A program made the translations under genes and the position numbers. This document shows, piece by piece, positions 23,596-41,021 of a stretch of 64,000 nt of DNA (position 1 is the first letter of the stretch; the number at the start of each line of letters is the position of its first letter). The stretch is from a virus (Duplodnaviria > Heunggongvirae > Uroviricota > Caudoviricetes): the IMG/VR virus record IMGVR_UViG_3300005512_005684, positions 103,003-167,002 of that record, one strand, 5' to 3'. The notes beneath the pieces were generated by a model, which was not told the DNA's origin, did no database searches, and was given only the letters and a program-made list of their open reading frames with translations.

Positions 23596-24182
23596 GTTTG
23601 ATGATCACTCGTGCGACCGAAGTGAGTGTGCACAAGCATGGAGAGAATCGTAAACTGTTGCTGCGGTTCTTTGTGAGTGGTGGGGAGCCATGCGTGTCTA
23701 TCGAGGTCATGGAGCGGGTCGCAGGTAAAGGAGATCGAGAACATGACACCTGGCGTCCTCACTTCCGGGTGTCCATCGGAAGTGTCGATGAATTGTGTTG
23801 TGAATCCGTTGGCCAAGAGTTCGCAAAGGGGATCAGTCGCGGGGAAGTCGGCGGGAAAACGTTTCGATACTTCGTTCACCGGTTCTTGCGCTACTACCTT
23901 GTTCAGAACTGGAAAATCCTTGATCAGCTTCACGGATACTCTAAGATTGATTTGTTCGGAGCTTGTCTTGACGTAGGTGAACACTTCAGTGTCTCCACGG
24001 CCTGGGGCTTGACAGAGCTTGATCCTGGTACGAACGGGTTTGTTCACCTGGTTTACGAAATGGCTAAGTTCGGTGTTTCGTGGGACGATTTGAATGAGCG
24101 ATTTGTGAAGCCAGACCCCGAGGATTTCCCGGAAACCTTCATGTATTGTGGCACCGAGCATTCTTACGAGGGGCAAGGATAA
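23592..24182 (+). CDS. hypothetical protein
   Basis: AGGAGAG RBS. Confidence 0.3.
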   Translation: MSLMITRATEVSVHKHGENRKLLLRFFVSGGEPCVSIEVMERVAGKGDREHDTWRPHFRVSIGSVDELCCESVGQEFAKGISRGEVGGKTFRYFVHRFLRYYLVQNWKILDQLHGYSKIDLFGACLDVGEHFSVSTAWGLTELDPGTNGFVHLVYEMAKFGVSWDDLNERFVKPDPEDFPETFMYCGTEHSYEGQG

Positions 24183-24634
24183 TGGACATCGGATCAGGAG
24201 CCGGATACCCGGCGTCAGCGTTGTCAAACTTCGCCCCACATCCGTTCGTGATCGACGGTGTGAAGTGCTATTCAATGGAAGGCTTCCTACAAAGCCTCAA
24301 GTTCAAGAATCCCGAAATGCAGGTCGAGGTCTGCAAGCTCGTGGGGAAGGCGGCGAAGTTCAAGGGCAAGAAAAAGAAATGGTGGCGGACCCAGACCTTG
24401 TGGTGGCGTGGGGAAGAGATTGATCGTCATAGTGAGGGGTATTCTACCTTGCTTGACAGGGCGTTCAATGCTTTGGCCAAGAACAGCGGTTTCAAGAAAG
24501 CGCTTCTAGCCACCGGCGACGCGAAGTTGACTCATAGCATGGGTAAGCGTGACCCGAACCGCACGATATTGACTATCGGTGAGTTCTGTGGTCGGTTGAC
24601 GCGGATACGAGAGAGGTTGAATGGCAATGGCTGA
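24182..24634 (+). CDS. NADAR-domain (YbiA-like, NAD/ADP-ribose-associated) protein
   Basis: MDIGSGAGYPASALSNFAPHPFVIDGVKCYSMEGFLQSLKF...ALLATGDAKLTHS matches the YbiA/NADAR signature (LSNF, DG, EH/EG-FQ, LL.TG). AAGGATAA RBS. The ORF-track start at 24146 is upstream in-frame. Confidence 0.55.
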   Translation: MDIGSGAGYPASALSNFAPHPFVIDGVKCYSMEGFLQSLKFKNPEMQVEVCKLVGKAAKFKGKKKKWWRTQTLWWRGEEIDRHSEGYSTLLDRAFNALAKNSGFKKALLATGDAKLTHSMGKRDPNRTILTIGEFCGRLTRIRERLNGNG

Positions 24635-25046
24635 GACGTTGACAGTGAGTGAGGCAACCGAGGCACTGCGCCGCGACATTGATGTTGATCCGTCGCGCGA
24701 TCCAGAGTGTTTTGATGCAGGTATGGTTCTACTTGGTTCGTTGATCCATGGCCCCAACATTAAACGGATCGCCAGTTGGTCGGGTATCCCACATGTTCGT
24801 GTTGCGACGGTTAGTCGTAATCTTCGTCAGTGCGGTGTGTGGAAAGGGAAGTGCATAGACGCACAACCGTGGTTTGACGAGAACGGTGGTGCGGTTGCCT
24901 TCCTGTTGGATGTCATGGTCGGTGCCGGCTTGTGTGAGCGCCGTGAACAAGATGACGATGAACCTTTGTACTGGTCAACCGAGGATCAAAGCATGACCGA
25001 GGTTGCTATCGACGCTCTGAAAGAAATCCTGGGGGAAACGAAATGA
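24621..25046 (+). CDS. hypothetical protein
   Basis: ORF overlapping upstream stop. Confidence 0.3.
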   Translation: MAMAETLTVSEATEALRRDIDVDPSRDPECFDAGMVLLGSLIHGPNIKRIASWSGIPHVRVATVSRNLRQCGVWKGKCIDAQPWFDENGGAVAFLLDVMVGAGLCERREQDDDEPLYWSTEDQSMTEVAIDALKEILGETK

Positions 25047-25234
25047 GCAAGGAAGAATGGAAGATGGAAGAGGCTGGGTGGTGGATCAACGGAAGCATTG
25101 CCGTCGTGCGAGAGAGTAACGGGCGTTGGCATAGTTACGTGACTGAGGATGACACACCGAAGAACTCCCCTTCATTCAAGACCATGCAGGAAGCCATGCA
25201 GGACGCGGAGAAAAGGAGAGACGAAAATGGATAA
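25043..25234 (+). CDS. small hypothetical protein
   Basis: ATGA overlap. Confidence 0.25.
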   Translation: MSKEEWKMEEAGWWINGSIAVVRESNGRWHSYVTEDDTPKNSPSFKTMQEAMQDAEKRRDENG

Positions 25235-25595
25235 GTTTGGGTATGTGACAGGGGAGAGTGGTGACGTGGCGTTGGTCGCCGTTCAACTCCGGGCGAATAT
25301 GTCGCTACGGATCGTTTGGACTGACAGTCGCGGCTTTGCGTGTCCGATTTACTTCGTCCCTTCGGCGACACTTGACTCGTACTATGATACGACTTCGCAC
25401 ACTACTCGCTGGAGAGACTCCGGCATGGTGGTCGTGTCAATGGAAAAACTCGGATGCTTCCACTTGAACTTACTGAACCGCGGTGGGAAAGAGTTCTCTG
25501 GAGAATACGTTGCCGAAAAACTCGGTGTAGATAAGGGACATACCGCGAACAAGTTGGCGGAGTTCTTGACGGCGATCTCTCGATTCGAGGCGTGA
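25227..25595 (+). CDS. hypothetical protein
   Basis: AAGGAGAGA RBS before MDKFGYV. Confidence 0.3.
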   Translation: MDKFGYVTGESGDVALVAVQLRANMSLRIVWTDSRGFACPIYFVPSATLDSYYDTTSHTTRWRDSGMVVVSMEKLGCFHLNLLNRGGKEFSGEYVAEKLGVDKGHTANKLAEFLTAISRFEA

Positions 25596-25742
25596 ATAAG
25601 CTATGGTAATTCCGTAGCGAAAGGGACAACCATCTACACGGGTATGCCATCTGACAGTGGGTTCACGAACGGAAATAACTTGAACTTAGGGGCACAATTC
25701 ATGAAGTGACGTAAAACGCCGTTTGCACTGGTATTGCGGGAT

Positions 25743-25800
25743 TGTACGCTGAAGGGCGACTAACACAAAATGCGTGTTGGTCGCCCTTTTCATTTTGTTT
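25743..25800 (+). terminator. strong rho-independent terminator
   Basis: GGGCGACTAACAC-loop-GTGTTGGTCGCCC (13-bp stem with one G.U) followed by TTTTCATTTTGTTTC. Sits in a 308-nt non-coding gap. Confidence 0.6.
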
Positions 25801-25903
25801 CTATATACACCTACTATGAACCAGAACTGAGGTGGAGAAAACATGGAGTGTAAAGACAGGAAATAATGGCGACGTTTTGTCTTAGACGAAGGAGGTACCT
25901 GGG

Positions 25904-27850
25904 GTGTCAAAATCTAAATCAGATGTAACGCTGGCACGCGTGTTCGCGTTGAATCCCATGAAGACGATTGCCGACTTCGCGGCGACGGACGTGTACGCGG
26001 CAATTGAGGAGTTGATTGCAAATCAGTACGACGAAGACAGTCGTGTTTCTGAGGTGTTCTTCGACGGAGGCACGTTGACGTTGAAAGACGACGGCTCGGG
26101 CATGTTGCCCGAGGACCTTGTGTATTTCTACCAGGTGGGTGGAAGCCCGAAGGTGCGTGAGCCAATCTCCCCGGAAAAGAAAAGGATCCGAATCGGGAAG
26201 TTCGGCGTGGGCACGATTCTACTCGACTTTCTTTGTGAGGAGTACGATCTTTACACCATGAAAGATGGTGTGCGTACAACGGTGAAGGAACGATTCACCG
26301 GAGAGTTGACGGAAGGGAAGGAAATCCCTTACAGGACAGAGAACGTTGATCATGACTTGCATGGGACGACGTTGATCTTGAAGAAACTTCGCTTTGCCGA
26401 AGGTGAAAGTTTTGATCTGGAGAAACTACATCGTCGGTTGGCATGGGCGTTCTTGCCGGAAGACGAGTTCCATGTCGAACTGAACGGTGAGTTGGTAGAA
26501 CCGAAACTCGACCGGTTTGCGGATAAGTTCGAGTACGAGATCAACGGGCGTGACATTGGTCAGGTCCAACTCGAAATCTATTACTCTAATGCGACTACGG
26601 AGCACGCGGGTGTGCACGTGTACGTGAATGGCCGGCGCGTTGGACGCCAGGAGGACTTCCTGGACCTTGGTAAGATTCGGGCGGACTTTGAGCGCCGTCT
26701 GGTCGTGAAGATTAAGGCCAACGGGTTGAATGACGCGATTCATTTCAACCGGGAACACTTCGACACAAATCATCCGACGTACGTGAACCTACAGAGAGCG
26801 GTGAAGCGTCGTTTGATGGAAGTGAAGTCTTCGGCGGAAGGAAAACAACGAACCAGTCCCTCCGTAAACATTCGACGCCGGATGTCCGAGTTGCGTAAAG
26901 ACGTGGAATGGAGACTGAATGAGCGGGCGTTGTGGTCGAAGATCGGGGCCAGTCGCCGACTGACGTTACTTTTCAATGAAGAGGTCGAAAAAGATCACGT
27001 GGGGGAGATTGACTTTTCCACGGGTGAGTTGTCGATCAACCTGGAGCACCCTTCCTTGGCGATTACTCCTGACATGAAGCCGCTCTTGTTCAAGCACATG
27101 TTGCTGAGTGCAGCCTTGGAGACGATTGCGGGGACAATGTGCAAGGGGAACCACAACGTTTACAGACGCGAAATTGCCAAGATGTGGACATTCGTGTTAG
27201 CGTCAGATGTAGCGCCGGTGGAAATGATTCGCGGTCTGTTGCCTGGGAAACTTTACAACGTCAAACAACTCGCGGAGTTTACCGACCTGAGTCCGGCTGC
27301 GATTCGTCGTATGTTCGATGCGGAGATTGTCAATCAAGATTCGCAGGGGCGAGTTCGTGGCAAGGAAATGATCGACATAGAGAGAAAGTTGGATGGGTTT
27401 ACTTCCCTGTTTGACGTAGCTCGAAGGGTACACGGTGACAAGTACGACTTCGCGGCGGTGGAACGGATCGAACGTCGCTTAGAGTCGGCGAATGATATGG
27501 AACCGTTTGCCATAGATTGTAGCGCTCACCCGAGGGTGCGGAGTTTCTTTTTCTATGACTTATGCGCGGACTACGTGTTCGACCGGCTCGCGGGCACCGA
27601 AGTGGCTCAGGCCGCAACGGTCGCGGAGCGTTTGCGTGACACGTATTTGTCAGTGTACCAACTGAGTCTGAAGGGCGGAGGGATTACGAGTCTTCCGAAA
27701 GACGTTGTGAACCGTGTTCTCAGCGACGCTCGGAAAAACCGTCTCACGATCCGGGAGAAATTCCAACGACAGATGATACGAGTTCACTTAGGTGACTTTG
27801 TTTCAGCTTGTCAAGCATTGAAGATAGGGGGAGAAAATGGCGACACTTAG
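25904..27850 (+). CDS. GHKL-superfamily ATPase (Hsp90/MORC-like Bergerat fold) with ~450-aa unknown C-terminal region
   Basis: GTG start after GGAGG. N-box EELIANQYDE, G1 box LKDDGSGM, G2 box GKFGVGT (cf. Hsp90 GQFGVGFYS). Confidence 0.55.
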   Translation: MSKSKSDVTLARVFALNPMKTIADFAATDVYAAIEELIANQYDEDSRVSEVFFDGGTLTLKDDGSGMLPEDLVYFYQVGGSPKVREPISPEKKRIRIGKFGVGTILLDFLCEEYDLYTMKDGVRTTVKERFTGELTEGKEIPYRTENVDHDLHGTTLILKKLRFAEGESFDLEKLHRRLAWAFLPEDEFHVELNGELVEPKLDRFADKFEYEINGRDIGQVQLEIYYSNATTEHAGVHVYVNGRRVGRQEDFLDLGKIRADFERRLVVKIKANGLNDAIHFNREHFDTNHPTYVNLQRAVKRRLMEVKSSAEGKQRTSPSVNIRRRMSELRKDVEWRLNERALWSKIGASRRLTLLFNEEVEKDHVGEIDFSTGELSINLEHPSLAITPDMKPLLFKHMLLSAALETIAGTMCKGNHNVYRREIAKMWTFVLASDVAPVEMIRGLLPGKLYNVKQLAEFTDLSPAAIRRMFDAEIVNQDSQGRVRGKEMIDIERKLDGFTSLFDVARRVHGDKYDFAAVERIERRLESANDMEPFAIDCSAHPRVRSFFFYDLCADYVFDRLAGTEVAQAATVAERLRDTYLSVYQLSLKGGGITSLPKDVVNRVLSDARKNRLTIREKFQRQMIRVHLGDFVSACQALKIGGENGDT

Positions 27851-30800
27851 AAATCAGGAGTTCGTTCAGTTCTTTGCGGACAATTCGCAGAAAGCCGATG
27901 CGAGCATGTTCGACGAGACCGAGGAGGAGCCGCGCAAGCTGTTCGCGCGAGATACTTTCGAGGATACCTTCAGTGGTATTGACGATCTGGTGGCTGAAGG
28001 TCAAGACTTGCTCGTGATCGCGAACGCGAGCGGGGCCGATACGATCCTGAGTTTTGCTGGTGGCTTGGCGGAGTACGCGAACGTCGAGTTGCTCGTGGTG
28101 GATTCGTACATCGGTTATCTGCGGAACTTCCTTTTCCGTGTGGCCTTGTTACAGTTGAACACGTCACCGGTGGAATACGTCAAAGACCTCTTCGGCGTAG
28201 ATGACGATGCACTGGTAGCGGACTTTCTGAAAGGCGACGCAGCAAGTGCGAAGCGTTTGGCGTCACGACCCTTTGACCCCGATGCTCACGCGTCTAACCT
28301 TTACGCTAAGCTCCGGGCGGCGCGTGGTCTCAGCAACGAGTACATTGACCTCGTGTCGGAAGCGGTGCGAGACGTGGGAAGTTACATTCATGCCTATGAT
28401 CAATTCTCTGATTTCGTCCAGGGCGTGTTCGGGAACGTGACTCGGAACAAGAAAACGTACTACCTCACCTCAAAGCGCCGGTTCGATGCTTTGAGGAAGA
28501 TTGTGACTTTCCCCAATGGAAAACAAGGGAATGGTTACGCGGTACACATGATCAATCAGAACATGGCTCGTGCCGCCGCGGTGGGCAAGGTTCGGAAGAT
28601 CGTACGTGATTACTTCCCCACGAAGAAAGGGGAGAATCCGATCAACTTCATTTTCGTACCGGATCCGGTGGAACTCACGGGGGCGGTACCGTTCATTGCT
28701 GACAACGCAGATTTCGTGGTCACGAGGAACAATGAGAGAGATCGTGTGATTGTGGTCGCGGATGCGACGGAGCTTGTGCCTACGTCTCACCAGGTGGCCG
28801 GTTTGGGCAAGTACAAGAAACTCCAACGACAGCGGAAACCGATCAAGGGTCTTGCTGACGCGCCGGTGTGTGAGGGTCTGGAACGAACGTTGTTCATGAC
28901 CCACCTGGAGATCGGAAGCATCTATTCTGACGAGGCGGCGATTGAGGATATGATCGACATTGCCAATGGTCGGGGTGCCACCCTTTGGGTTACAAGTGCG
29001 GCGCTCTTTGGCCCGAAGATTTACCGGGGGAAGAAAGAGCGGCAGTTGTTAGACCCCGAGTATGCGTCCCTTGACGCGCAGTTACGGAAGTTCATGTACT
29101 ACGTCGAACGGTTCAACGGGAACGTGATCTACGTTCTGAGTCCGGTTGACTGGGAAAACATGGTGGACTTGAAGACCATCTTCATTAAGGAACTCAACGC
29201 GAGGAAAACAGGGAAGATTCAGTTCGACCTGAATATCTCGCAGCGTGAGCAAGACTTCCTCACGCAGTTCGAGGAACCGGGAAGGGTCATTGTCCAGCAT
29301 TACTATCCGACGTTACTGCGGCTCGGAGAGGACCCGGGGCTTTACACGGAGGAAGTGAACGTCGAAGGTGGAGCCGGACATAATAACGTCCGGTACATGA
29401 CGAGGGAAGGAATCAGTATCGTCGATATGGTTCGGGCAATGGAGCGTCGAGCCAACCAGAAAGCTCCGACAGGGAAAGATCGTGAAGTCTTCGCAGCCAT
29501 TGAGCGAGGGTGGGAGAACAACCCGAAGCTCAGCGTGTTCGATGACTATAGCGGCTTTGACCATCTGGAGACTGGAACTGGAGCGAAGGGTGAGAGGCCG
29601 AGACCGCTACGGGTTTTCCCGGATACCAGAATGACTGGCAAGACGGCTTACACGAAACCGTTTCAGACGTTGGCGCAGATTATGTGTCTGCGCTCTGGGG
29701 GAACGTTGGACGTGGCGGAGCCTATCGTGGTGGACGTGCAGCAATTCTGGCAACTGATTCGGATGACCTCGACAGGGGTCGCCTTGAGCACGTCACACAT
29801 GGTGGACGACCGTCGGTACTTCGATGCGAATTTCTCGACGGCGGCGTTTAAGAGGACGCCAGGTAGCCATGTACACAAGCGGTGTACGAAGCCGAAGCCG
29901 ACGATCAACATTCCTTCGGCGACGCTTGTGAGTGGCCATCCTGAGAAACGTCTCGCCTATGAGATGTACCCGCCGATGGTAGTTGATCAAGTGCGTAAGC
30001 GTGCGAAGGACAAAGGGCTTCGAGACGTTTCCATTTGTGTTTATCATGACACGCAGTTGGGTAACTACACGGAGCGTTTGGCTTTTCAGGTCAAGGCAAT
30101 GGATTACGCGTTCCATGAGCGCGGTTGTTCATGTTACCTTGGACTCGGTGACCGCGGCCACGGGTGGAACTACAGAGACTTTCCCTTGGACGCGTCACCG
30201 GGCTTCATTTCGATCTCGGCTCAAAAGAAAGCCATCGTGGAGTTGTCGAGACCTTACTTCACACTTCCGCAGGTTCGGTTGTGGGGAGAGGTTGAAGGGA
30301 ACCACGAAAAGAATAGCGACTGGGGTCACCAGGGGCGACACTACATGGACAGGATTGAAGAGGCGCTCAAGACTCACTGTCTTGAGTCGGGTCACGAGAT
30401 TGCCTTAGCATTCCCTCAGTGGCTTCAGTTGAAGAATGGAGACCTGGTACGAGCGCCTTTTGGTTTCGCACGGATCAATGGATACAACGTCGCGTTTGCC
30501 CACAAGTTTCACGCGCACAAGAACGTGGGTAGCTTGGACGTGCCGGTGGAAATTGCTGCGGACTGGAAGCGCTTCATGGGTAGCACGGTGAAAGATGTGG
30601 ACATTTGCCTTGCGGCACACTATCACCGTGCGGAGGTTCTTCAGGAGCACAACACACTGTTCTGTATGCTCGGTGGCCAGGCCGGGAATAGTGGTTACGA
30701 GTTCGAGCGCCAGTTCACCAGTGAGCCAACGACTACAATCATGACGATTGAGGCTTCCGGTGTGGTGCGTTTCGAGTTCCTTCCTGACTCTACTCTTGAA

Positions 30801-30965
30801 GGCTACGCGGTGAAAAACCCGGTCGTGAAGAAACGGGGTCTGGATGAATTCATTCAGGATGCGATCTCAGTGGACGTGCATCCGTTCCACACGGAAGACG
30901 TGGACGGTATGCAGGAGTTCCTCGTGAGAGAACCGGTTCTCAAGGATAACTTCGGTATCGAGTAA
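27837..30965 (+). CDS. 1042-aa hypothetical protein; C-terminal third carries calcineurin-like metallophosphoesterase-like motifs (GDRGHG...GNHE...HYH)
   Basis: GGGGGAGAAA RBS; 14-nt overlap with GHKL gene. LGLGDRGHGWNY, VEGNHEKN, LAAHYHRAE are spaced like MPE motifs II-III-V, but motif I is unclear. Confidence 0.35.
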   Translation: MATLRNQEFVQFFADNSQKADASMFDETEEEPRKLFARDTFEDTFSGIDDLVAEGQDLLVIANASGADTILSFAGGLAEYANVELLVVDSYIGYLRNFLFRVALLQLNTSPVEYVKDLFGVDDDALVADFLKGDAASAKRLASRPFDPDAHASNLYAKLRAARGLSNEYIDLVSEAVRDVGSYIHAYDQFSDFVQGVFGNVTRNKKTYYLTSKRRFDALRKIVTFPNGKQGNGYAVHMINQNMARAAAVGKVRKIVRDYFPTKKGENPINFIFVPDPVELTGAVPFIADNADFVVTRNNERDRVIVVADATELVPTSHQVAGLGKYKKLQRQRKPIKGLADAPVCEGLERTLFMTHLEIGSIYSDEAAIEDMIDIANGRGATLWVTSAALFGPKIYRGKKERQLLDPEYASLDAQLRKFMYYVERFNGNVIYVLSPVDWENMVDLKTIFIKELNARKTGKIQFDLNISQREQDFLTQFEEPGRVIVQHYYPTLLRLGEDPGLYTEEVNVEGGAGHNNVRYMTREGISIVDMVRAMERRANQKAPTGKDREVFAAIERGWENNPKLSVFDDYSGFDHLETGTGAKGERPRPLRVFPDTRMTGKTAYTKPFQTLAQIMCLRSGGTLDVAEPIVVDVQQFWQLIRMTSTGVALSTSHMVDDRRYFDANFSTAAFKRTPGSHVHKRCTKPKPTINIPSATLVSGHPEKRLAYEMYPPMVVDQVRKRAKDKGLRDVSICVYHDTQLGNYTERLAFQVKAMDYAFHERGCSCYLGLGDRGHGWNYRDFPLDASPGFISISAQKKAIVELSRPYFTLPQVRLWGEVEGNHEKNSDWGHQGRHYMDRIEEALKTHCLESGHEIALAFPQWLQLKNGDLVRAPFGFARINGYNVAFAHKFHAHKNVGSLDVPVEIAADWKRFMGSTVKDVDICLAAHYHRAEVLQEHNTLFCMLGGQAGNSGYEFERQFTSEPTTTIMTIEASGVVRFEFLPDSTLEGYAVKNPVVKKRGLDEFIQDAISVDVHPFHTEDVDGMQEFLVREPVLKDNFGIE

Positions 30966-30975
30966 AGGGGGACGA

Positions 30976-31701
30976 ATGGCCTACAAGCCCAATCCGAAGA
31001 CGGCGGGAAGTGGGGTAGTCTGCTGTATACCGCAGACAGGGAAGTGTCCCAACGAGTGCGAGGATTGTTTCTTTCAATCCGGTCGCTCATACTTAGAACC
31101 GTTGGGTGCGAATCTACCGAATATGCCTGAGAAATCAGAGGTAGATTTTCGGGTGGTGCGAGTCAATGATGGTAACGATAGCAATGTGGAACGTGGACTT
31201 GTTGAACACGAGACGGTGCAGTATCCGTTGCGTTTCTACAACACTGCGATCCCGAGAGACTTGGAGACGTTCACTGCTCCCGTAGTTTTGACGGTGAATC
31301 CTGGTGGCATGACGGACACGGGTGCACACTTAGTTGATCCGTGTCCGCCGCAGCTAATGATGGTGCGGTTCCGTGCGAACGTGTGGAATGTAGAGTTGTG
31401 TGACGAGGTTGTCGAACATTATACAGAGAGGGAAATTCCGATCATCTTGACGTTCATGGCCTATTTCGCTTTGGTTGTGCCGGAGGAAGACAAGGGTGAT
31501 TACGTGTTCCGTAAACGTACGACGAACTCGTACTGGGCAATTACTACCGAAGCCTGGGAGCGGGTCATGGCTCGGTACAAGTACAATCGGTGGGTCCACT
31601 CGTGTGGGAAGATTGAGGGGGAGAAAGGCAGTACCGCTTGTCGTCATTGCGGCAATTGCCTTCGAGAGTTCTTCGCGTGTAGGGAACGGATGTCGTCTTA
31701 G
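30976..31701 (+). CDS. small radical SAM enzyme (canonical Cx3Cx2C plus C-terminal CxxCxxC cluster)
   Basis: AAGGGGGA RBS. CPNECEDCFF (Cx3Cx2C + aromatic) at residues ~23-32. C-terminal CGKIEGEKGSTACRHCGNC. Confidence 0.45.
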   Translation: MAYKPNPKTAGSGVVCCIPQTGKCPNECEDCFFQSGRSYLEPLGANLPNMPEKSEVDFRVVRVNDGNDSNVERGLVEHETVQYPLRFYNTAIPRDLETFTAPVVLTVNPGGMTDTGAHLVDPCPPQLMMVRFRANVWNVELCDEVVEHYTEREIPIILTFMAYFALVVPEEDKGDYVFRKRTTNSYWAITTEAWERVMARYKYNRWVHSCGKIEGEKGSTACRHCGNCLREFFACRERMSS

Positions 31702-31703
31702 AC

Positions 31704-32261
31704 CTACTCTTCAGCTTGGTAGGTGTTGACAGGGAGGATGTTGGTTTGTGGCTGATCCTGGGTCATGACCCGGTGAACTTGGTGTTCGGCTAAGTCGGTC
31801 AAGTAGAACTTCCGAATACGAAGCCCCCAGTCAGTAGCGCGGTGTCGTATCCCATCCGTGACTTCCTTTTTCAATTGATCGGACTTAATGCACTCGTCGA
31901 ACGTATGAGTCATTACGAAGTCCGCAATGATTCCCATTGCAAGGTTCTGAAGCGACGTATCGTAGTCCTGGACTTCGAGGATCGCCTTCTGTACGTTGCC
32001 AATGGAGTATTCAATAGCGCCGCCAATTGCGACAGTTTTTTGATCGTTGGTGGTAACGCTTTGGTTGGGTAAGTTGATTACCTGCGGTGTAACGTCTATG
32101 GTGAGGATGTCCTGGATTAGTGGCCAGAACACATAGATGCCTTCCTCGACATCTCTACGGAAGTGGCCGGCGTTTAAGAACACACCTTTCTCATTCGGCG
32201 GGACTTTCTTAATCCGTGGAATGACTCTGGTAATTACTTCAATCAGTTCGACGAATTGCAT
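31704..32261 (-). CDS. SPFH/band-7 (stomatin/prohibitin/HflC-like) domain protein
   Basis: Minus-strand ORF with AAGGTGG RBS before ATG (MQFVELIEV). VAIGGAIEYSIGNVQKAILEVQDYDTSLQNLAMGIIADFV...LKKEVTDGIRHRATDWGLRIRKFYLTDL matches the SPFH core. Tail-to-tail with the rSAM gene, 2 nt apart. Confidence 0.45.
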   Translation of the reverse strand: MQFVELIEVITRVIPRIKKVPPNEKGVFLNAGHFRRDVEEGIYVFWPLIQDILTIDVTPQVINLPNQSVTTNDQKTVAIGGAIEYSIGNVQKAILEVQDYDTSLQNLAMGIIADFVMTHTFDECIKSDQLKKEVTDGIRHRATDWGLRIRKFYLTDLAEHQVHRVMTQDQPQTNILPVNTYQAEE

Positions 32262-32379
32262 CGGCAACCACCTTTCCCTGGGTCTACTGTAAGCTCACAT
32301 AGGATGTTAAAACCGTTTCTACAGTAGTTTATTTTCAGTTTGTTTCCTGGTAAAGGTGTGTGGAGTTTCGGAGGTAGCT

Positions 32380-33453
32380 GTGAAGTTTCTCGTTTTGGCA
32401 CTTAGCGATACTCTGGAACTGTACAACTATCTCTTCGGAGAGGAAAACTGCATAGTCCACCAGGTCGATTTTCAACCGTTTGATAAGAACGCAGAGCGAG
32501 AAAGATTGTCGGACACGCTGAGGGCGCACAATGACATAGCGTTCCTTGGCGGTGAGAGATTAGGGGATATGGCGATCAATCTCGGACTGACTCGACCGAA
32601 CTGGTACTATGACCTTGACCTTCAACGTTTTTTGAATGTCTTCGGCCTTGGACGACTCCCCTTTCCGTTCATTCACGTTGACAGTTACGATTACTTCAAC
32701 ACTCTCTTTAACACCGGAACTTTTCGTGAACGAGACCTGGTTCTAAAGGGTCAGTGTCAACATGGTCATTTTAGTGACAAGGGATTGACGAGACGTAAGA
32801 AAGTGTTGTGGTATCCGTACTGGTTAGGTTGGAAGCGCACACTAACGACGTTAGTTCAAGATTGGACCAACGTCTTTCAGCCTACGGAAAAATATAGCGT
32901 GTGTTTTCATGGAACGTCGGCTACGTGGAAACCTAGAAAAAAGTTGGTCGAGTTGGTGAATGAAGCCTTTGACGATGTGTGTGCCGAGGTTGTTAGTCGG
33001 TGTGATGGAGGGAATCGAGTTGCTCCCGCGGACTATGTGAAGTTGATTCTGAGTTCGGACGTGTGCCTGAACATGCGTGGTAACGGGGTCCTGACGATTC
33101 GGTTCTTTGAGATACTGAGACACGGCCAGTTTTGCTTAACGGACAGGTGTTTACTCGACGGCTGTTATTGGCCAGTGAGTCCCCGTGGTAGTGAACGCTT
33201 TGGACGATGTTGTGGGGAGTATGAGGACATCGGTACCGTGGTGGCCGAGTGTCGGTATTGGCTTGAACATCCTGACGAGCGGGCGGAAGTCGCTCGCAAC
33301 GGGGCCGAGTTCTGGCGTTGTCTGTACTCACCGGATGCCTTGAGGGTTTACGGTCGCAAGTTTCTCGAAGGCTACTGCTCTGGTGAACTGGAGTTTGTTC
33401 TTGCTCAATACCTGTCTGAAGTAGGCGGGGCTAACCCCGTGGAAATGGTGTGA
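32380..33453 (+). CDS. putative glycosyltransferase-like protein (GT-B C-terminal-half-like)
   Basis: GTG start after GGAGGT. RGNGVLTIRFFEILRHGQFCLTD resembles the EGFGLxxLEAMAxGxPVI donor-binding segment. Weak. Confidence 0.25.
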   Translation: MKFLVLALSDTLELYNYLFGEENCIVHQVDFQPFDKNAERERLSDTLRAHNDIAFLGGERLGDMAINLGLTRPNWYYDLDLQRFLNVFGLGRLPFPFIHVDSYDYFNTLFNTGTFRERDLVLKGQCQHGHFSDKGLTRRKKVLWYPYWLGWKRTLTTLVQDWTNVFQPTEKYSVCFHGTSATWKPRKKLVELVNEAFDDVCAEVVSRCDGGNRVAPADYVKLILSSDVCLNMRGNGVLTIRFFEILRHGQFCLTDRCLLDGCYWPVSPRGSERFGRCCGEYEDIGTVVAECRYWLEHPDERAEVARNGAEFWRCLYSPDALRVYGRKFLEGYCSGELEFVLAQYLSEVGGANPVEMV

Positions 33454-33758
33454 AGATGATCAAAGACTTACCACGTGTTCATGGGATTGCTCGCAGGCTG
33501 TTTGCAAGTCCTCACCTACATGAGATAGAATGTGACGGGGAGGTAACACACGCGGATGCCAAGATAGAACTCTATGGGACAGGCAAGTTACCTCGATGTT
33601 TTGAGAGGTTTCTGGAGCGGTTCTACAATACGAGGGATAAGCAGAGACTTTTGCAACTTTCAGTCAGTTCTCGTTTGGTACCCGTAATGATGGGCGGGAA
33701 GGTTCAGGTAGTTGACCGCGATGCAAGGAAGTGCGTACGCACCGAGAAGTGCCGCTAA
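33450..33758 (+). CDS. small hypothetical protein with class-2 leader (RVHGIARRLFA)
   Basis: GTGA overlap. MKMIKDLPRVHGIARRLFASP. Confidence 0.3.
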   Translation: MKMIKDLPRVHGIARRLFASPHLHEIECDGEVTHADAKIELYGTGKLPRCFERFLERFYNTRDKQRLLQLSVSSRLVPVMMGGKVQVVDRDARKCVRTEKCR

Positions 33759-33774
33759 CGGGACATGCTGGTGA

Positions 33775-34512
33775 ATGAACCGGAATAAGCATCTGACATT
33801 CTCGTTTGACGACTATGATGCGGAGCTTCCTCGTGTGGCCGAACACATGGCGAAGCACAACATTCCAGCGACGTTCTACGTGTGCTCGGGCGCGTACGAC
33901 CGTCATGCGTTGATCGATGTTATAGAAATGGGTCACGAGGTCGGTGCTCATACGCACAGCCATTCGCGTGTTTGTCCGCGTATGATGAAACAGATGTGTT
34001 GGCGTAAGGGGACGAAGTGCAAAGATTGTGCGGAGTACTTGGCGTCACTTGAAGAACATTTTCGTACGGAGTTACTGGAACCGCGGTTGCGTTTGGAAGA
34101 TGCCCTTCGAGTCAGTGTGATCGGGTTTTCCTTTCCTCACAATTCAACCCCGCATATTCGGAAGTACGTTAAGGAAGCCGGTTACTTGTACGCGCGGACA
34201 CCGAATGTGAAAGAGTTCATTTTTCCACGTGACCTGTTTTACATCTGGCCGACTGCGGAGTTTACGTCGTACCGCGGTTACAACATGGCCATGATGTATG
34301 CCGAGGGTATGCAGAGGATCGTTTGTGCCCACTTTTGGGGACATCCGAGGCACTTTGTTGCTCGGGGCCTGGACGTGATAGACCGCTTCCTGGGCGTGAC
34401 ACTGGAGAATGCAGGTAGTCAGGTGGCTACGAACCGGGACGTGTACTTGTGGGGAGCTAAGCGGGAGGCCGTTCGTAAACGGGACGAAGAGTTGAAGACT
34501 TGGTACGTTTGA
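33775..34512 (+). CDS. polysaccharide deacetylase (CE4 / NodB-homology domain)
   Basis: LTFSFDDYD...ATFYVCSGAY...GHEVGAHTHSH follows NodB motifs 1-2 (TFDDG ... H[ST]xxH). Confidence 0.55.
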   Translation: MNRNKHLTFSFDDYDAELPRVAEHMAKHNIPATFYVCSGAYDRHALIDVIEMGHEVGAHTHSHSRVCPRMMKQMCWRKGTKCKDCAEYLASLEEHFRTELLEPRLRLEDALRVSVIGFSFPHNSTPHIRKYVKEAGYLYARTPNVKEFIFPRDLFYIWPTAEFTSYRGYNMAMMYAEGMQRIVCAHFWGHPRHFVARGLDVIDRFLGVTLENAGSQVATNRDVYLWGAKREAVRKRDEELKTWYV

Positions 34513-34526
34513 CAGGGAGAAAAACA

Positions 34527-35777
34527 ATGTGGTCTGACGATATGAGGAAGGTTGAGAGGAAAGCTCTGGGAGCGTTCGGGAAGTCTGAGCCGGGGACGAT
34601 CTCGATACCGTTGTCTCAGTTCCAGAACGCGTTTGCCGATATGGTGGGAATCAAGAGAGATCGGCGCGCTAAGGAGAGAGGTGAGAAAGACACACATGGT
34701 ATGTCGCCTGATAAGGATGGCAAGAACCATCGGTTGGGAGCGCGTGGCGAGTATGCCTTTGCCCTTCATTCAGGGAAGCTCTGGAAGACTTTCATACCTG
34801 GCGGCGGGTACAAAAAGGGGGAGACAAAGATGGATGTCGGGGAGGGAGATAATGACATAGACATAGGCGGTCGTTACGAGATTCGTAGTACGGATCATGA
34901 GGATGGAGGGTTAATGGTCTATGGAACGGACTACCAATTCAAGGTGTGTGTAGCTGTCCGTCTGATCAATCCGAAAGAGATCAGGAGTGGGGGTGAACTC
35001 ATTCGAGTGGACTTCGAGCGGGCCGACATCGTGGGCAAAAAGTTTGCGTTTGATGCTCAGCGCGCGATGTACAACTACCATTGCTCGTTTCAGGACAGGG
35101 ACAAGTGGCCGGATAGAATGAGGAGCAAGTATCTGTCGATCCGTAGGAAGACACCGAAGAAAAAACGGGGTCCGGCCTTTCTCGTGGATCCACATCGGCT
35201 TTACCATATCGATCAAATGATGCTCGCTAGTCCGCAGTTTGAACACCGGACGTTGATTCGTGACGTGGGGAAGAAAGGGGTAATTGCTTCGCCGCGACCC
35301 CCGGCGCTTTTGTGGGAGGGTGCGTCTCCGTTGACGTTGAGCTACGCACTCGTGTGTCGTACCTTCGAGACCAAAAGGTTGAAGGGAGGTCGTCGGAAGA
35401 GGGGCGGTGAAGGGTCGGTGCACTGGATTGTCTATAACGTTACCAGACCCGTTACAGGGATTAAGAGAGAGAGATTCCGTCAGACACCGGTGATTGACGA
35501 GGATACGGTAAAGCGTTTTCTTTACGACGGTCACTACGCGGTTACTTCAGTGTACCAGATGCAGAACGACTACGGGTATCTCGGGTATGCTCCATTGGGT
35601 TCCAGGAAGGGGAAGCGTGGGACGCGAGAGGTCGAATTTCGACTCTATGCTCTCAGACGATTCTTGAATCCGTGTCGGTTGAAGCACGGGATCGCGTTCT
35701 TCGAGAATCGTCTCATGAAGCGAGCCAAGGAAAAGAGAGACGTGTTGAATACCGCGGTTTTGGTCGGGTGGTATTGA
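34527..35777 (+). CDS. 416-aa hypothetical protein
   Basis: AGGGAGAAAAAC RBS before ATG 34527. Confidence 0.35.
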   Translation: MWSDDMRKVERKALGAFGKSEPGTISIPLSQFQNAFADMVGIKRDRRAKERGEKDTHGMSPDKDGKNHRLGARGEYAFALHSGKLWKTFIPGGGYKKGETKMDVGEGDNDIDIGGRYEIRSTDHEDGGLMVYGTDYQFKVCVAVRLINPKEIRSGGELIRVDFERADIVGKKFAFDAQRAMYNYHCSFQDRDKWPDRMRSKYLSIRRKTPKKKRGPAFLVDPHRLYHIDQMMLASPQFEHRTLIRDVGKKGVIASPRPPALLWEGASPLTLSYALVCRTFETKRLKGGRRKRGGEGSVHWIVYNVTRPVTGIKRERFRQTPVIDEDTVKRFLYDGHYAVTSVYQMQNDYGYLGYAPLGSRKGKRGTREVEFRLYALRRFLNPCRLKHGIAFFENRLMKRAKEKRDVLNTAVLVGWY

Positions 35778-36501: not shown

Positions 36502-36538
36502 GTCGTGTCTTTTTTCGTGGGCCGATAGGGAGGAAATC

Positions 36539-36820
36539 ATGCCGAAGGGTACCAGACTTCATTGCCATCCACGGATGGAAGAGAAACACGGTGTGCCGGA
36601 TGGACACGTGATTGTGGATCGTGATGCTCTGGAGTTGGCACACGGAGTGATCGTTGCTTCGGTTGAGACCGAGGTGCGACAAGATACGTCCCCGTTGACT
36701 GGGGAGAAAACTTACGACACGCTGGTCAGCGCGTCACTTCCGAAAGAGTTGGGTTTGAAACACGGTCAAAAGGTCAAGGTTGTTGTCGTTCGGGAAACTG
36801 GACCCATGGGTATCGGATAA
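36539..36820 (+). CDS. hypothetical protein
   Basis: GGGAGGAAATC RBS before ATG. Confidence 0.3.
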   Translation: MPKGTRLHCHPRMEEKHGVPDGHVIVDRDALELAHGVIVASVETEVRQDTSPLTGEKTYDTLVSASLPKELGLKHGQKVKVVVVRETGPMGIG

Positions 36821-36833
36821 GGAGGGACAGGAA

Positions 36834-37625: not shown

Positions 37626-37694
37626 GGTGTGTTGGAACTGCGGTACTTGTTTACCGCTGTGGGAAGCGTCAATCGAAACTAAGGGAGGGGCGCC

Positions 37695-38315: not shown

Positions 38316-38495
38316 AGTTGTGGGCTCTCAAGGAAAAGTTCGTGTAGATTGACGGAGCGGAGCAAAGAGTGAAACGTCGAATCAAGATGTGGATAGTCCA
38401 GGTTCTCGGCTTGGCCTTGGTCATACAGGGAGGGGTCTGGATTTACCAGTGCGGATTCTTGGAGTCTTTTTTTGGCGTTGGTCTGGGGGATCATC

Positions 38496-39053
38496 ATGTT
38501 CCTCTTGATCATTAACGTCGGCTTGATCATTGACGAGTTCTCGTTCACGAGAGCCATTGCTGTTGTCGTTACCTATTGTGCTCAGGAGTATCTTGCCGGT
38601 CACACAGAGGCTTCGTTCTGGGGGACGGTCTTCAAGTTTTTGTTCATGTTGTTCGGTCTTGTGCTTGTGGCGTGGCCGTTTATCTGGGCGATACTCAGAG
38701 AGATTCTGAAAGCGATTGCTGAAAAGGAAGAGAATGCGAAGAGAGAGGCTGAGGCTCGTGCCTATGCTCGAAGTTCTGGGACTCGTAACCAGTATCAGCG
38801 AAGGCGTCGAGTGTTCACTAACTTTGTGTCTGGGTGCTATCATGCGAGTGCCTTGAGAACAGTCGGTGTCAGTCCTGGGGCAAGCATAGGAGACCTTGAA
38901 CGTGCATATCGGATTAAGTCGAAGCAATGTCACCCAGACTTGCACCCGGACGATCCTATGGCTAAGAAAAAGTTTCAGAGCTTGGGAGAGGCGTACGAGT
39001 TCTTGAAGAAATACGGTACAGGTCAGGCAATTCCTACTACAGGGAGAATTTGA
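38496..39053 (+). CDS. membrane-anchored J-domain (DnaJ-like) protein
   Basis: C-terminal GDLERAYRIKSKQCHPDLHPDDPMAKKKFQSLGEAYEFLKK carries the J-domain HPD motif. N-terminal hydrophobic helices. GGGGGAT RBS-like before ATG 38496. Upstream alternatives are TTG 38472 or, via a frameshift, ATG 38387. Confidence 0.45.
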   Translation: MFLLIINVGLIIDEFSFTRAIAVVVTYCAQEYLAGHTEASFWGTVFKFLFMLFGLVLVAWPFIWAILREILKAIAEKEENAKREAEARAYARSSGTRNQYQRRRRVFTNFVSGCYHASALRTVGVSPGASIGDLERAYRIKSKQCHPDLHPDDPMAKKKFQSLGEAYEFLKKYGTGQAIPTTGRI

Positions 39054-39343
39054 GTGTGGCGAAGTGGAAGACGAAACGGATCAAGTTTCGGGAAGTGCCG
39101 CTGATTAACGTGCCGCCTGGCCGGATTGCGTTAATGCTGAATGCTCGGGAAGGGGTCGAGATTCGACTAGGGGAGACGACGAGCGTGATCATGCGTAAGG
39201 ACTGGGAGACGCCAATGAAACGTCTCATGCTCATGCTCAGGGTTGTGGCTGAGAGGTTCGGAGAGGTCGAGAGTCGGATGTTATTTAAGGTCAATCATCG
39301 TCAGGACAGGTACGTGGGTCCCGTGGTCATTGTGAGGGTCTGA
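39050..39343 (+). CDS. hypothetical protein
   Basis: ORF with TTG/GTG start overlapping upstream stop. Confidence 0.25.
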   Translation: MSVAKWKTKRIKFREVPLINVPPGRIALMLNAREGVEIRLGETTSVIMRKDWETPMKRLMLMLRVVAERFGEVESRMLFKVNHRQDRYVGPVVIVRV

Positions 39344-39345
39344 GA

Positions 39346-39840
39346 ATGGAACCAAGAGAGTTTGTTCAGGACATGCTCAATGGAATGTGCGAGCGTTGGG
39401 AGCAAGCGGGAGTGCCCATCGATCACCGAGAGGACTCTCTGAACTGGCTGGTCCTCGAAGCAGCGGATATGCTTCGACTTGTGCGTGAGGTGCACCGTAT
39501 GAGACGGGTCTACATGAAAGGTGTGTTGACGTACGTGAGTGTCTTTGGGAAGGTCGTGGGAGAGAATGTCTCGACACCGTGGTTCCGTTTGGATTGTCTT
39601 CAGGCGATTGTTGAAGGTGATCGCCAGGTGATTCTGAACATGATGCGCGACGGTTTCATGATGTGCACGGTGTGTGAGCCGGGGAGGTTTTCGCACGTGA
39701 TCGATGGTGCTCGACGTGAGGACATCTGCAATGAGTGTGGACGCCGTTACAACGGTCTCGGACACCCGTGGACTCCGATTCTACTCGGTGTGACAGACAA
39801 GACGATTGAAAAGATCGCCGACGCGATCCTGGAGGAGTAA
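39346..39840 (+). CDS. hypothetical protein (Cys pairs CTVCEP / CNECGRR)
   Basis: ATG 2 nt after upstream stop. Confidence 0.3.
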   Translation: MEPREFVQDMLNGMCERWEQAGVPIDHREDSLNWLVLEAADMLRLVREVHRMRRVYMKGVLTYVSVFGKVVGENVSTPWFRLDCLQAIVEGDRQVILNMMRDGFMMCTVCEPGRFSHVIDGARREDICNECGRRYNGLGHPWTPILLGVTDKTIEKIADAILEE

Positions 39841-40137
39841 ATGAAGCTGCGAAGACTACTCCCTAGTTTTCCGAATCCGATGCTCACTGTTCCATCGACG
39901 ATGCTCGGGAAGGAAGTGAAGAAAGGGGATACGATCCATCTAATCGTCGCTCGATCTGGTTTTACGAGAGAGGTCATGATCAACGCGAGTGATACGGACG
40001 TGAACTACCGCAAATCTGATATTGACGCAAAGGAAGACAGGGACAAAAAGACATTCGTGGTGAAGTTCACGGTGGACGATTTCTGGGGAGTGCCAAGGGG
40101 GAAGCGGAGTGTTTCTAGCTCTCAATCAAAAAGCTAA
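39841..40137 (+). CDS. hypothetical protein
   Basis: GGAGGAG RBS; TAAATG junction. Confidence 0.25.
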   Translation: MKLRRLLPSFPNPMLTVPSTMLGKEVKKGDTIHLIVARSGFTREVMINASDTDVNYRKSDIDAKEDRDKKTFVVKFTVDDFWGVPRGKRSVSSSQSKS

Positions 40138-40486
40138 CGAACTGATCAACCTGGAGAACGTGTACTACGTGAGTTTCGAGGGTGAGATCGTTAAGGTGTT
40201 CTATCGTGGCGGAGTGAGTAAGTTGGTATGTCGCCGTATCGAACGACCTAAAGCCGTCCGGTGCGTGCGAAAGTTTGTGACCGAACAAAAGCAGTTCGCC
40301 GATGTCGGTGAAGGGTACTGGCTCAATCTCGACTTCGTAAGCGAGATTAAGATACCTGGTAGGTTTTCTGAGGTTTACTTCGATGGTGTATCTCGACCAA
40401 TGGCCGTGACGTTCCGAATCATGGTGAAAGATTTCGGACAGGAGTTGCTCGGGGTTTCTAATGGAAAGGGGTCCACAAATGGCTGA
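40109..40486 (+). CDS. hypothetical protein
   Basis: ORF; start uncertain. Confidence 0.25.
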   Translation: MFLALNQKANELINLENVYYVSFEGEIVKVFYRGGVSKLVCRRIERPKAVRCVRKFVTEQKQFADVGEGYWLNLDFVSEIKIPGRFSEVYFDGVSRPMAVTFRIMVKDFGQELLGVSNGKGSTNG

Positions 40487-41021
40487 CGAGACCAAGTACG
40501 AAGGTCGGTTCATTCGTATCGTGAGTCGTGACGGTTGGGAGTTCGCAGACCGCGTGAATTGCACGGGTGTTGTGCTCGTGGTCGCACTCACCGATGACAA
40601 CAAGATCATTCTGGTCGAGCAGTTTCGACCGCCCGTGGGGAAGAACGTGATCGAGCTTCCTGCGGGACTGGTAGGGGACGAAGACAGTAAGGAAGGGTTG
40701 ATTGCGGCGGCGATACGTGAGTTGGAAGAGGAAACAGGGTACAGGCCGCGAAGAGACTGCGACGCCTCGTTGCTGGTTTCCTACGGCCCCTCGACACCGG
40801 GTATGGCTTCGGAGCTACTCGCCATTGTCGGTGTGGGCAACCTGGAGAAAGTCGGACCAGGTGGTGGTGTTGGCCGTGAGAACATCGTGGTTCACGAGGT
40901 GCCGAGGATGACCTTGTATCATTGGTTGAACGCGAAGTCGCGTTCGGACGAGGTACTGGTGGACTTGAAGGTGTACTCCGGTGTCGGTGCGCTCGTCATG
41001 CGTGCCGGAACAAGATGGTGA
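40479..41021 (+). CDS. NUDIX hydrolase, ADP-ribose pyrophosphatase-like
   Basis: Perfect Nudix box GDEDSKEGLIAAAIRELEEETGY (Gx5Ex7REUxEExGU) preceded by ELPAG. N-terminal GRFIRIV...E...GVVLV resembles NudF/ADPRase. Confidence 0.6.
   Translation: MADETKYEGRFIRIVSRDGWEFADRVNCTGVVLVVALTDDNKIILVEQFRPPVGKNVIELPAGLVGDEDSKEGLIAAAIRELEEETGYRPRRDCDASLLVSYGPSTPGMASELLAIVGVGNLEKVGPGGGVGRENIVVHEVPRMTLYHWLNAKSRSDEVLVDLKVYSGVGALVMRAGTRW

Follow-up and report, generated by a model that had tools for sequence, protein, structure and literature searches.

Phage proteins of the gp30.3 type form a branch of their own within the NADAR superfamily, marked by a histidine where YbiA has a glutamate and the NADARs linked to DarT1 toxins have an aspartate (PMC11125620, PMC11543638). 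They hydrolyse ADP-ribosylated guanine in DNA in vitro (PMC11125620). The T4 protein, since renamed AdfN (anti-DarT factor NADAR), is both necessary and sufficient to defeat the DarTG1 defence system; its E36A and K43A variants are dead, and the allele of RB69, truncated by 15 residues at the C-terminus, shows no activity (PMC11257639). Here, these proteins are compared with a NADAR gene, and with a gene for a Nudix hydrolase, from the Caudoviricetes virus record IMGVR_UViG_3300005512_005684 of IMG/VR. The analysis covers positions 103,003 to 167,002 of that record, a 64-kb stretch referred to as the window, in which the NADAR gene lies at 24182–24634 and the Nudix gene at 40479–41021. Coordinates throughout are positions in the window, and residue numbers are those of the window protein.

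T4 encodes the ADP-ribosyltransferases (ARTs) Alt, ModA, and ModB. Across medium-sized and jumbo myoviruses, ART, Macro, NADAR, and Nudix domains co-occur above chance, and are often packaged in the virion or expressed early (Iyer et al., PMC9503650). Most phage Nudix domains fall into the T4 NudE or NadM clades (Iyer et al., PMC9503650). The T4 enzyme NudE.1 is active on ADP-ribose (ADPR), NAD, and NAD-RNA (10.1101/2024.04.04.588121).

A preliminary description of the window had treated 24182–41021 as a toolkit that, together with at least ten ART-like genes, could write, erase, and degrade ADP-ribose marks. The reading preferred here, with a probability of about 0.6, is that the NADAR and the Nudix hydrolase are independent accessory genes, the first removing ADP-ribose from DNA in the manner of AdfN and the second being of the ADPR type, while the ARTs are separate again. 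The earlier picture thus changes in three respects: the target is DarT1 rather than DarT2, the 17-kb span is no functional locus, and the ARTs number six to seven rather than ten or more. Neither gene alters the current understanding of such phages, as large myoviruses, with T4 as the model, are already known to combine ART, NADAR, and Nudix.

A NADAR of the gp30.3 branch

The NADAR gene (24182–24634, plus strand) encodes a protein of 150 amino acids (aa). Its ATG overlaps the stop codon of the upstream open reading frame (ORF) in the sequence TAATG, with an AGGA 4 nt upstream. The same ORF was called identically by the Joint Genome Institute (JGI) on an independent metagenome contig (sample 3300001419, 31.6 kb), which is identical to approximately 10.9–42.6 kb of the window and supplies independent gene calls. 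The protein matches the entire Pfam profile Phage_30_3 (PF08010) with an expectation value (E) of 8.9e-59 and 197.7 bits against a cut-off of 36, and it matches phrog_652 at 1.4e-50. PF08719, the model suggested in the preliminary description, is absent from the matches of the window protein at E ≤ 0.01, but is on record for a 77%-identical homologue; the NADAR-superfamily model that is matched is PF08010. The YbiA family model TIGR02464 stays below threshold (E 0.008). Searches with tblastn find the protein in 1508 phage records, overwhelmingly T4-superfamily myoviruses, with identities of 69% to Vibrio phages V09 and nt-1 and 38–40% to T2 gp30.3.

The residues on which activity depends in T4 are conserved. 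E33 and K40 occupy the alignment positions of T2 E36 and K43, and both are invariant in alignments of 8 and 35 sequences. The peptides quoted in the preliminary description are present, with LSNF at residue 14, MEGFLQ at 32, and LTHS at 116; H118, within the last of these, is the branch histidine of the final strand and is invariant in all aligned members, T2 and nt-1 included. The C-terminus is full length, as the alignment reaches the end of T2 gp30.3 and the structural model shows a helix at residues 132–148. A single-sequence search of the PDB returned only noise, and a family profile found YbiA (2b3w, E 0.011) as its sole match. The AlphaFold2 model (pLDDT 90, pTM 0.86) was more informative. 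In Foldseek, its first PDB match is YbiA 2b3w (E 7e-5, TM 0.63), followed by the Phytophthora NADAR-ADPr structure 8bau (probability 0.98) and the Geobacter DarG1-type NADAR 8bat (0.77), and all remaining matches have probabilities of 0.03 or less. Because the fold search returned the three solved NADARs, membership is settled: profile, fold, and catalytic residues confirm 24182–24634 as a full-length member of the NADAR superfamily, in the AdfN branch. The superfamily assignment of the preliminary description is therefore upheld, whereas its label ‘YbiA-like’ needs narrowing, since the branch is that of gp30.3/AdfN, with a histidine, rather than that of YbiA, with a glutamate.

That YbiA is the best structural match, and that TIGR02464 is approached at all, could be taken to mean that the protein acts mainly on soluble ADP-ribose immune signals or toxins, as proposed by Iyer et al., or on N-glycosides of the riboflavin pathway, as YbiA does. 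This is distinctly unlikely. It is gp30.3/AdfN itself that has been shown to strip ADP-ribose from DNA guanine, and to be what is necessary and sufficient against DarTG1 (PMC11125620, PMC11257639), and the window protein has the phage-branch histidine in place of the YbiA glutamate. A YbiA-type riboflavin N-glycosidase was rejected as a candidate on that residue.

By analogy with the 38–40% identical T2/T4 protein, the window NADAR is predicted to act on guanine-ADPr DNA. It would bind ADP-ribosylated phage DNA and hydrolyse the N-glycosidic bond between ADP-ribose and guanine, a mark presumably placed by host toxins of the DarT1 type in DarTG1 defence. Removal of the mark would free ADP-ribose and let replication go on, so that the protein would resemble an orphan antitoxin. 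The preliminary description had named DarT2 products as the substrate of NADARs, which does not agree with the published biochemistry. DarT2 modifies thymine, and that mark is reversed by the macrodomain DarG; NADARs reverse the guanine marks of DarT1, and those tested failed on thymidine-ADPr (PMC11125620, PMC11543638). Pairing of the DarTG1 type is not seen in the window, where the neighbours of the NADAR gene are small unknown ORFs without an ART domain. One published observation weighs against a straightforward transfer of function: T4 AdfN performs best in a Tevenvirinae context, possibly by way of hydroxymethylated DNA (PMC11257639).

The gene belongs to the phage gene pool of the T4 superfamily. 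Approximately 4800 metagenomic homologues were found, those listed being about 70–79% identical, and this degree of identity over thousands of metagenomic contigs suggests a widely traded counter-defence gene under strong constraint. Homologues at three loci elsewhere sit in wholly different neighbourhoods of other large phage contigs, one with DHH, GmrSD, and HD genes and another with glycosyltransferases, Thg1, and Dam. The rest of the window has almost no detectable homologues, and for a horizontally traded accessory gene, conservation of this degree is unusually strong. An AdfN-type NADAR in this position would carry a proven anti-DarTG1 counter-defence into a phage lineage with no other detectable resemblance to cultured phages.

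A Nudix hydrolase of probable bacterial origin

The Nudix gene (40479–41021, plus strand) encodes a NudF/NUDT5-like protein of 180 aa, a probable ADP-ribose (ADP-sugar) pyrophosphatase. Its start is the same in the JGI gene call, with GAAAGGGG upstream. The Nudix box, GDEDSKEGLIAAAIRELEEETGY, occupies residues 66–88 (40674–40742, plus strand) and fits GX5EX7REUXEEXGU exactly, as the preliminary description had it; a regular-expression search finds no other match to this pattern in all six frames of the window. The protein also passes the Pfam Nudix model (PF00293, E 1.7e-9, 38.2 bits against a cut-off of 21.1). Downstream of the box, residues 107–112 read PGMASE, a PGxxxE loop of the type found in ADP-ribose pyrophosphatases (ADPRases), and the surrounding STPGMASE aligns with TSPGFADE of the Bacillus ADPRase 8wv3. 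In the ADPRase literature, the loop glutamate and a downstream proline are held to be diagnostic. All 26 residues that are invariant across the protein’s subfamily are kept in the window copy.

Searches of solved structures point in the same direction. The single sequence finds 21 PDB matches, each either an ADPR/ADP-sugar pyrophosphatase or a Nudix protein without a name; Bacillus 8wv3 is the best at 9e-16, NUDT5 follows at 5e-14, and ADPRases of Thermus and Mycobacterium are also among them. With a profile built from 21 family sequences, the best 19 matches are ADPR/ADP-sugar enzymes (5e-29 to 1e-15), ahead of NudK, NUDT14, and NudE, and no MutT-type enzyme comes near the top. A MutT-type 8-oxo-dGTPase was rejected as a candidate, since the PDB searches place no such relatives ahead of the ADPR/nucleoside diphosphate (NDP)-sugar enzymes. 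Both of the family placements on which the preliminary description had staked its case, NADAR membership for the first gene and a grouping with ADPR/ADP-sugar enzymes rather than 8-oxo-dGTPases for the second, thus hold.

Several results nevertheless weigh against an ADPR-type enzyme. The protein falls below every curated NCBIfam cut-off, scoring 32 bits against 79.55 for TIGR00052, 31.7 against 169 for the NudE model NF008736, and 20.7 against 248 for the ADPRase model NF008003 (PRK10729). The label ‘ADP-ribose pyrophosphatase’ that the JGI attaches to its homologues is a generic COG name. GDP-mannose-cleaving NudK (1.6e-14) and UDP-glucose-cleaving NUDT14 (1e-8) are significant profile relatives too. 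These points leave room for an auxiliary metabolic or RNA-processing enzyme that acts on NDP-sugars, NAD-capped RNA, FAD, or ApnA. Such a role would suit the genes 6–8 kb upstream, for a Glyco_trans_1_2 protein (32356–33453) and a Polysacc_deac_1 protein (33775–34512), and T4 NudE.1 offers a precedent, being promiscuous and able to decap NAD-RNA in vitro (10.1101/2024.04.04.588121). The 19 best PDB relatives, whose E-values surpass that of NudK by as much as 14 orders of magnitude, and the ADPRase-type loop speak for ADPR instead. There is also no tblastn similarity to T4 NudE.1 or other phage Nudix proteins, and the PHROG matches are weak and limited to the box. A substrate other than ADPR is therefore rather doubtful, if still a serious contender. 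Since all curated cut-offs are missed, ADPRase is the best-supported inference rather than a demonstrated membership. The earlier identification as an ADP-ribose pyrophosphatase stands insofar as the nearest solved relatives are ADPR/ADP-sugar enzymes, and it needs qualifying with respect to the substrate, which is read from those relatives.

The enzyme most likely cleaves free ADP-ribose, or a closely related ADP-sugar, to AMP and ribose-5-phosphate. During infection, free ADP-ribose could have three sources: host defences that act as NADases, the NADAR reaction, and hydrolysis of NAD+ by the phage ARTs. Given this shared supply, a loose chemical link between the genes is plausible but unproven.

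The origin of the Nudix gene appears to differ from that of the NADAR. Its closest homologues, 45–55% identical, are found on bacterial contigs, the longest measuring 4.4 Mb, that belong to bins of Planctomycetota, Omnitrophota, Myxococcota, and Xanthomonadales, and two of them sit among genes for PntAB, PhoX, serine dehydratase, and ABC transporters. Phage relatives are scarce: tblastn against 50,697 phage records gave no match at 1e-5, a scan of IMG/VR found no close relative (the best distant one being 40% identical), and the nudix families of PHROG match weakly (5.6e-5 and 1.4e-4), in alignments confined to the box. At 0.578, the GC content of the gene is about 2.5 standard deviations above that of the window genes (0.522 ± 0.022), and its GC skew is typical. 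Judging by these comparisons, the gene lies outside the two described phage Nudix clades and seems to stem from a separate capture of a NudF-like gene from bacteria. This NudF-type origin is the only mildly new element of the finding. Were the enzyme specific for ADPR, it would represent a third independent route by which phages have gained an ADPR-clearing activity.

ADP-ribosyltransferases, leader peptides, and the organisation of the window

Six ARTs are supported in the window, all on the plus strand. The only protein to pass a Pfam ART model is a 253-aa protein of the ART-PolyVal family (48956–49717; PF18760, E 6.1e-9, 37.2 bits against a cut-off of 31.2), which also has a weak PARP match. 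Two further proteins are ART-PolyVal-like on the strength of a profile of outside homologues: the N-terminal domain (800–1312) of a 556-aa protein (800–2470), in which the shared motifs are YYHGAS, FTYLAKTK, and GYSAIEFHD, and a 182-aa protein (51928–52476) without a Pfam match of its own. A profile of these three sequences, searched against 1.84 billion proteins, found 145 homologues, many of them giant and multi-domain; among 30 short matches, 19 belong to PF18760 and six also match PARP. A profile rebuilt from 142 outside homologues recovers the three at 4.5e-66 (48956–49717), 5.4e-37 (the N-terminus of 800–2470), and 1.1e-22 (51928–52476), scores that are partly circular.

The other three supported ARTs are paralogues of one another, at 4004–4981 (325 aa), 7141–8208, and 45685–46671. 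BLAST and phmmer group the three as one family, and the first has a weak PARP match (E 4.9e-4). The invariant elements of the trio are YH, G.Y, and DED, and the family has the ART fold and is homologous to ART-PolyVal (hhalign probability 92%). The longest ORF of the first paralogue begins with a GTG at 3944, and the 325-aa JGI product begins with an ATG at 4004; the latter is the likelier start because it places a conserved leader, described below as class A, at residue 5, as in the other paralogues. All-against-all BLAST, phmmer, and iterated hidden Markov models within the window found only this three-member family, and the ‘ART family’ of the preliminary description is therefore not a set of close paralogues. 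Beyond the six, a protein at 5801–6559 (plus strand), in which LYHAT follows a class A-like leader, is a probable divergent ART: hhalign gives a probability of 52% (E 1.4e-4), and hmmsearch with the ART profile gives 4.6e-4 within the window proteome, with no Pfam match. Two more plus-strand proteins are candidates by a [LVF][YF]H[GT][TN] motif only, namely 4971–5798, with VFHGN after a class A leader (hhalign probability 4%, which leaves it unsupported), and 44361–44945, with LFHTT after a class A-like leader and no profile support.

In all, nine window proteins carry [LVF][YF]H[GAT][TSN] soon after a conserved leader, and these are probably what the preliminary description took for an ART family of at least ten genes. 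Six supported ARTs, one probable, and two known by motif only bear out the presence of ART genes, but do not reach ten, and none lies inside 24182–41021. Searches for relatives of the ARTs elsewhere were largely negative. The ART-PolyVal protein had no tblastn match in phages, IMG/VR scans with the paralogues, as a single sequence and as an alignment, found no relatives, and a homologue of the trio on a 47.5-kb contig has neither NADAR nor Nudix in 21 kb of called genes.

At least six ART-fold proteins, each behind an N-terminal leader, probably modify host targets. Among the structural neighbours of the paralogue model are ARTs that act on nucleic acid (Tpt1, Scabin, pierisin, and DarT), and NADARs act as antitoxins to DarT1 and YarT (PMC11543638, PMC11125620). 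It could thus be imagined that PARP/Tpt1/DarT-like ARTs of the phage modify nucleic acid to the detriment of the host, while the NADAR cleans the phage’s own DNA in an unlinked arrangement resembling a toxin–antitoxin system. Such self-immunity is very unlikely. The target of an ART is not readable from similarity of fold, and the best-characterised examples, T4 Alt, ModA, and ModB, modify proteins or RNA; the NADAR adjoins no ART, and AdfN occurs widely in phages whether or not these ART families are present.

The leaders themselves are more unusual than the NADAR and Nudix finding. Three classes of recurrent N-terminal leader occur on approximately 20 window proteins, far above chance. Class A, R-[IV]-[AH]-x-I-A-x-R-V, has nine strict matches against 0.025 in shuffled sequences, eight of the nine within the first 25 residues; it is assigned to ORFs starting at 800, 4004, 4971, 5801, 11907, 12518, 33450, 44361, 45685, 50345, 51928, and 53501. 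Class B, M-A-x3-E-L-x2-[FYW]-E-[RK], has nine matches against 0.5 in shuffles, eight of them at exactly residue 6, with ORF starts at 66, 7141, 8201, 42646, 46674, 47444, 48956, and 49717. Class C, (M)AKSIVAYHR, has three matches against none in shuffles, with ORF starts at 6560, 9292, 9670, and 53952. Among the supported ARTs, 48956–49717 has a class B leader, the paralogue at 7141–8208 has both B and A, and the remaining four have class A. The leader-bearing proteins comprise all supported ARTs, an S-adenosylmethionine (SAM) methyltransferase, a metallopeptidase-like protein, and unknowns. Because the leaders precede such unrelated domains, they suggest a role as signals in sorting, packaging, or cleavage, such as the targeting of injected effectors to the capsid. 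In the 800–2470 protein, a class A leader at residue 6 is followed by the ART-PolyVal-like domain and by a second class A motif, RVHSIARKI, at residue 172; the protein appears to be built of several modules, with the motif at their boundaries or at cleavage sites. Neither the NADAR nor the Nudix protein has a leader of any class.

The arrangement of these genes bears directly on whether they form one system. An integrated programme, in which the ARTs write ADP-ribose marks, the NADAR erases them, and the Nudix enzyme degrades the released ADP-ribose, has some appeal: all three enzyme classes occur within one 64-kb window, the chemistry is compatible, as the free ADPR produced by the NADAR is the presumed Nudix substrate, and the NADARs of T4-like phages are expressed early along with ARTs (Iyer et al., PMC9503650). 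The genes are dispersed, however, with ARTs at 0.8–8.2 and 45.7–52.5 kb, the NADAR at 24.2 kb, the Nudix gene at 40.5 kb, and no adjacency among them. Leaders mark the ARTs and neither of the other two, AdfN homologues in other phages have quite different neighbourhoods, and the Nudix gene is a singleton acquisition without phage relatives. The integrated programme is consequently unlikely, and the single write, erase, and degrade system of the preliminary description is not borne out, given the dispersal of the genes, their differing origins (the NADAR from the phage pool, the Nudix gene bacterial), and the absence of ART leaders from both. Two independent accessory functions, rather than one system, are most likely. 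ART, NADAR, and Nudix co-occur at the genome level, as they do in T4, and nothing indicates a coupled pathway.

The interval 24182–41021 was likewise rejected as a single locus, being merely the stretch between two unlinked genes. The NADAR and Nudix genes are 16 kb apart, separated by approximately 25 unrelated genes. These include genes for a GHKL-type ATPase, a 1042-aa unknown protein, a minus-strand Band_7 protein, a glycosyltransferase, a polysaccharide deacetylase, a PEBP-domain protein, a DnaJ-domain protein, and unknowns; Pfam assignments, both precomputed and newly run and covering every gene in between, show nothing related to NAD or ADPR. No model of a defence system in PADLOC matches the NADAR, the Nudix protein, or the ARTs. 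Pfam scans of the window also found no Macro, SLOG, Sir2, TIR, NadV/Nampt, NMNAT, Adps, or Namat domains. Rebuilding of NAD+ by NARP-type pathways (NARP1, Adps and Namat; NARP2, Nampt and Nmnat; NARP3, NadR and PnuC) was rejected as well, as the partner genes were not found among approximately 70 ORFs scanned, by direct Pfam searches or JGI precomputed Pfam assignments, in the 64 kb of the genome covered.

A more elaborate scheme would join the pieces differently. ARTs delivered in the virion by way of their leaders, at least one of them acting on nucleic acid, would be accompanied by the NADAR as an unlinked antitoxin against guanine-ADPr of both host (DarT1-like) and self-inflicted origin, and by a bacterial-type Nudix enzyme that destroys ADPR and possibly the cyclic ADPR isomers or His-ADPR of Thoeris. 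The chance that this is so is slight, the slightest among the readings considered here. If true, it would amount to an erase-and-destroy pathway run by the phage, with a new class of signal-degrading Nudix enzyme.

The wider window fits a part of a large uncultured phage-like genome, because it holds gp30.3, ART-PolyVal, a hint of a phage-type metallopeptidase, RNase H, and DNA methylases, alongside numerous small unknown ORFs. Approximately 92% of it is coding, with almost all plausible genes on the plus strand, and the GC skew is strong and uniform over all 64 kb (0.13–0.27, about +0.2). A scan for tRNA genes in the window found none. Together, the skew, the one-strand orientation, and the lack of tRNAs are consistent with unidirectional replication and transcription across a long arm of a large phage genome. 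Megablast of the window, the 24–42 kb stretch included, against 50,697 phage genomes gave no match, and the majority of window ORFs have no Pfam or PHROG match.

Several other genes deserve mention. The GHKL-type protein at 25904–27850 (648 aa) has an N-terminal HATPase_c_3 domain (E 1.4e-5; phrog_6203, 1e-15), and the gene overlaps by 14 nt that of the 1042-aa protein (27837–30965), whose sole family match is a weak C-terminal one to an exonuclease PHROG and which had no tblastn match in phages; the two possibly form an ATPase–nuclease module. The Band_7/SPFH-domain protein (31704–32267) is the only convincing minus-strand gene and lies between plus-strand genes. A radical-SAM/SPASM protein is encoded at 2440–3258 (SPASM E 2e-11). 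The 241-aa product of 30976–31701, which has a CPNECEDC (CX3CX2C) cluster near its N-terminus, cysteine pairs at its C-terminus, and no Pfam match, may be a second radical-SAM-like enzyme. The 425-aa protein at 34500–35777 has a C-terminal phosphatidylethanolamine-binding protein (PEBP) domain (PF01161, E 2.5e-7, above the cut-off), and a TMEM65-domain protein (44949–45704; PF10507, E 2e-26), of a family unusual in phages, is found amid the leader-tagged genes. Genes for sugar and methyl transfer occur at 13914–16965, 32356–34512, 46674–47441, and 52890–53504, and include a GT_PLOD-like glycosyltransferase, Methyltransf_24, an SNase, an NT5C-like nucleotidase, Glyco_trans_1_2, the polysaccharide deacetylase, a SAM methyltransferase, and an N6/N4 DNA methylase. 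The set could be a sign of DNA or surface modification, which bears on whether the AdfN-type NADAR would here act on DNA that is modified, as has been proposed for its T4 counterpart.

Comparison with described systems

Among characterised proteins, T4 gp30.3/AdfN (PF08010) is the closest counterpart of the window NADAR. The two share a full-length profile match, the same glutamate, lysine, and histidine, an intact C-terminal helix, a standalone single-domain form, and residence in a large phage. The setting differs, as the window neighbourhood is unrelated to the 30.x cluster of T4 or to that of nt-1, with a-gt.4, a nucleotidase, and gp46/47, and, unlike the AdfN of cultured phages, this copy is carried by a genome without other detectable DNA or protein similarity to them. 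DarG1, the NADAR antitoxin of DarTG1 in E. coli C7 and Geobacter lovleyi (8bat), has the same fold (Foldseek rank 3) and presumably the same hydrolysis of guanine-ADPr. In contrast to DarG1, the window NADAR has no adjacent DarT1 and no PADLOC model match, and a histidine replaces the catalytic aspartate.

The Nudix protein resembles NudF and NUDT5 (8wv3, 5c7q, 1v8i, 1mk1, 2dsc) in its Nudix box, N-terminal beta extension, and PGxxxE loop. Unlike them, it is phage-encoded, falls below the equivalog cut-offs, and has a 4-residue insertion after the box. Its subfamily is distinct, with the motifs GRFLRLV..DGWEF and GPGGG, and is found mainly in metagenome bins of Planctomycetota, Omnitrophota, and Myxococcota. 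T4 NudE.1 and the NadM/NatV Nudix proteins are phage-encoded too, can hydrolyse ADPR, and co-occur with NADARs and ARTs in large myoviruses (PMC9503650). The window protein differs from NadM/NatV in that it is not fused to NMNAT and that no NadV, Nampt, Adps, or Namat is found in the window.

The ARTs at 48956–49717, 51928–52476, and the N-terminus of 800–2470, as well as the paralogue trio, resemble the ART-PolyVal domains (PF18760) of the polyvalent proteins of phages and conjugative elements. There, the domain forms part of giant multi-domain proteins, whereas the window ARTs are mostly small and standalone, behind short leaders. The domain repertoire found behind the leaders resembles that of ‘polyvalent proteins’, although here it is divided among individual proteins, each tagged with a leader.

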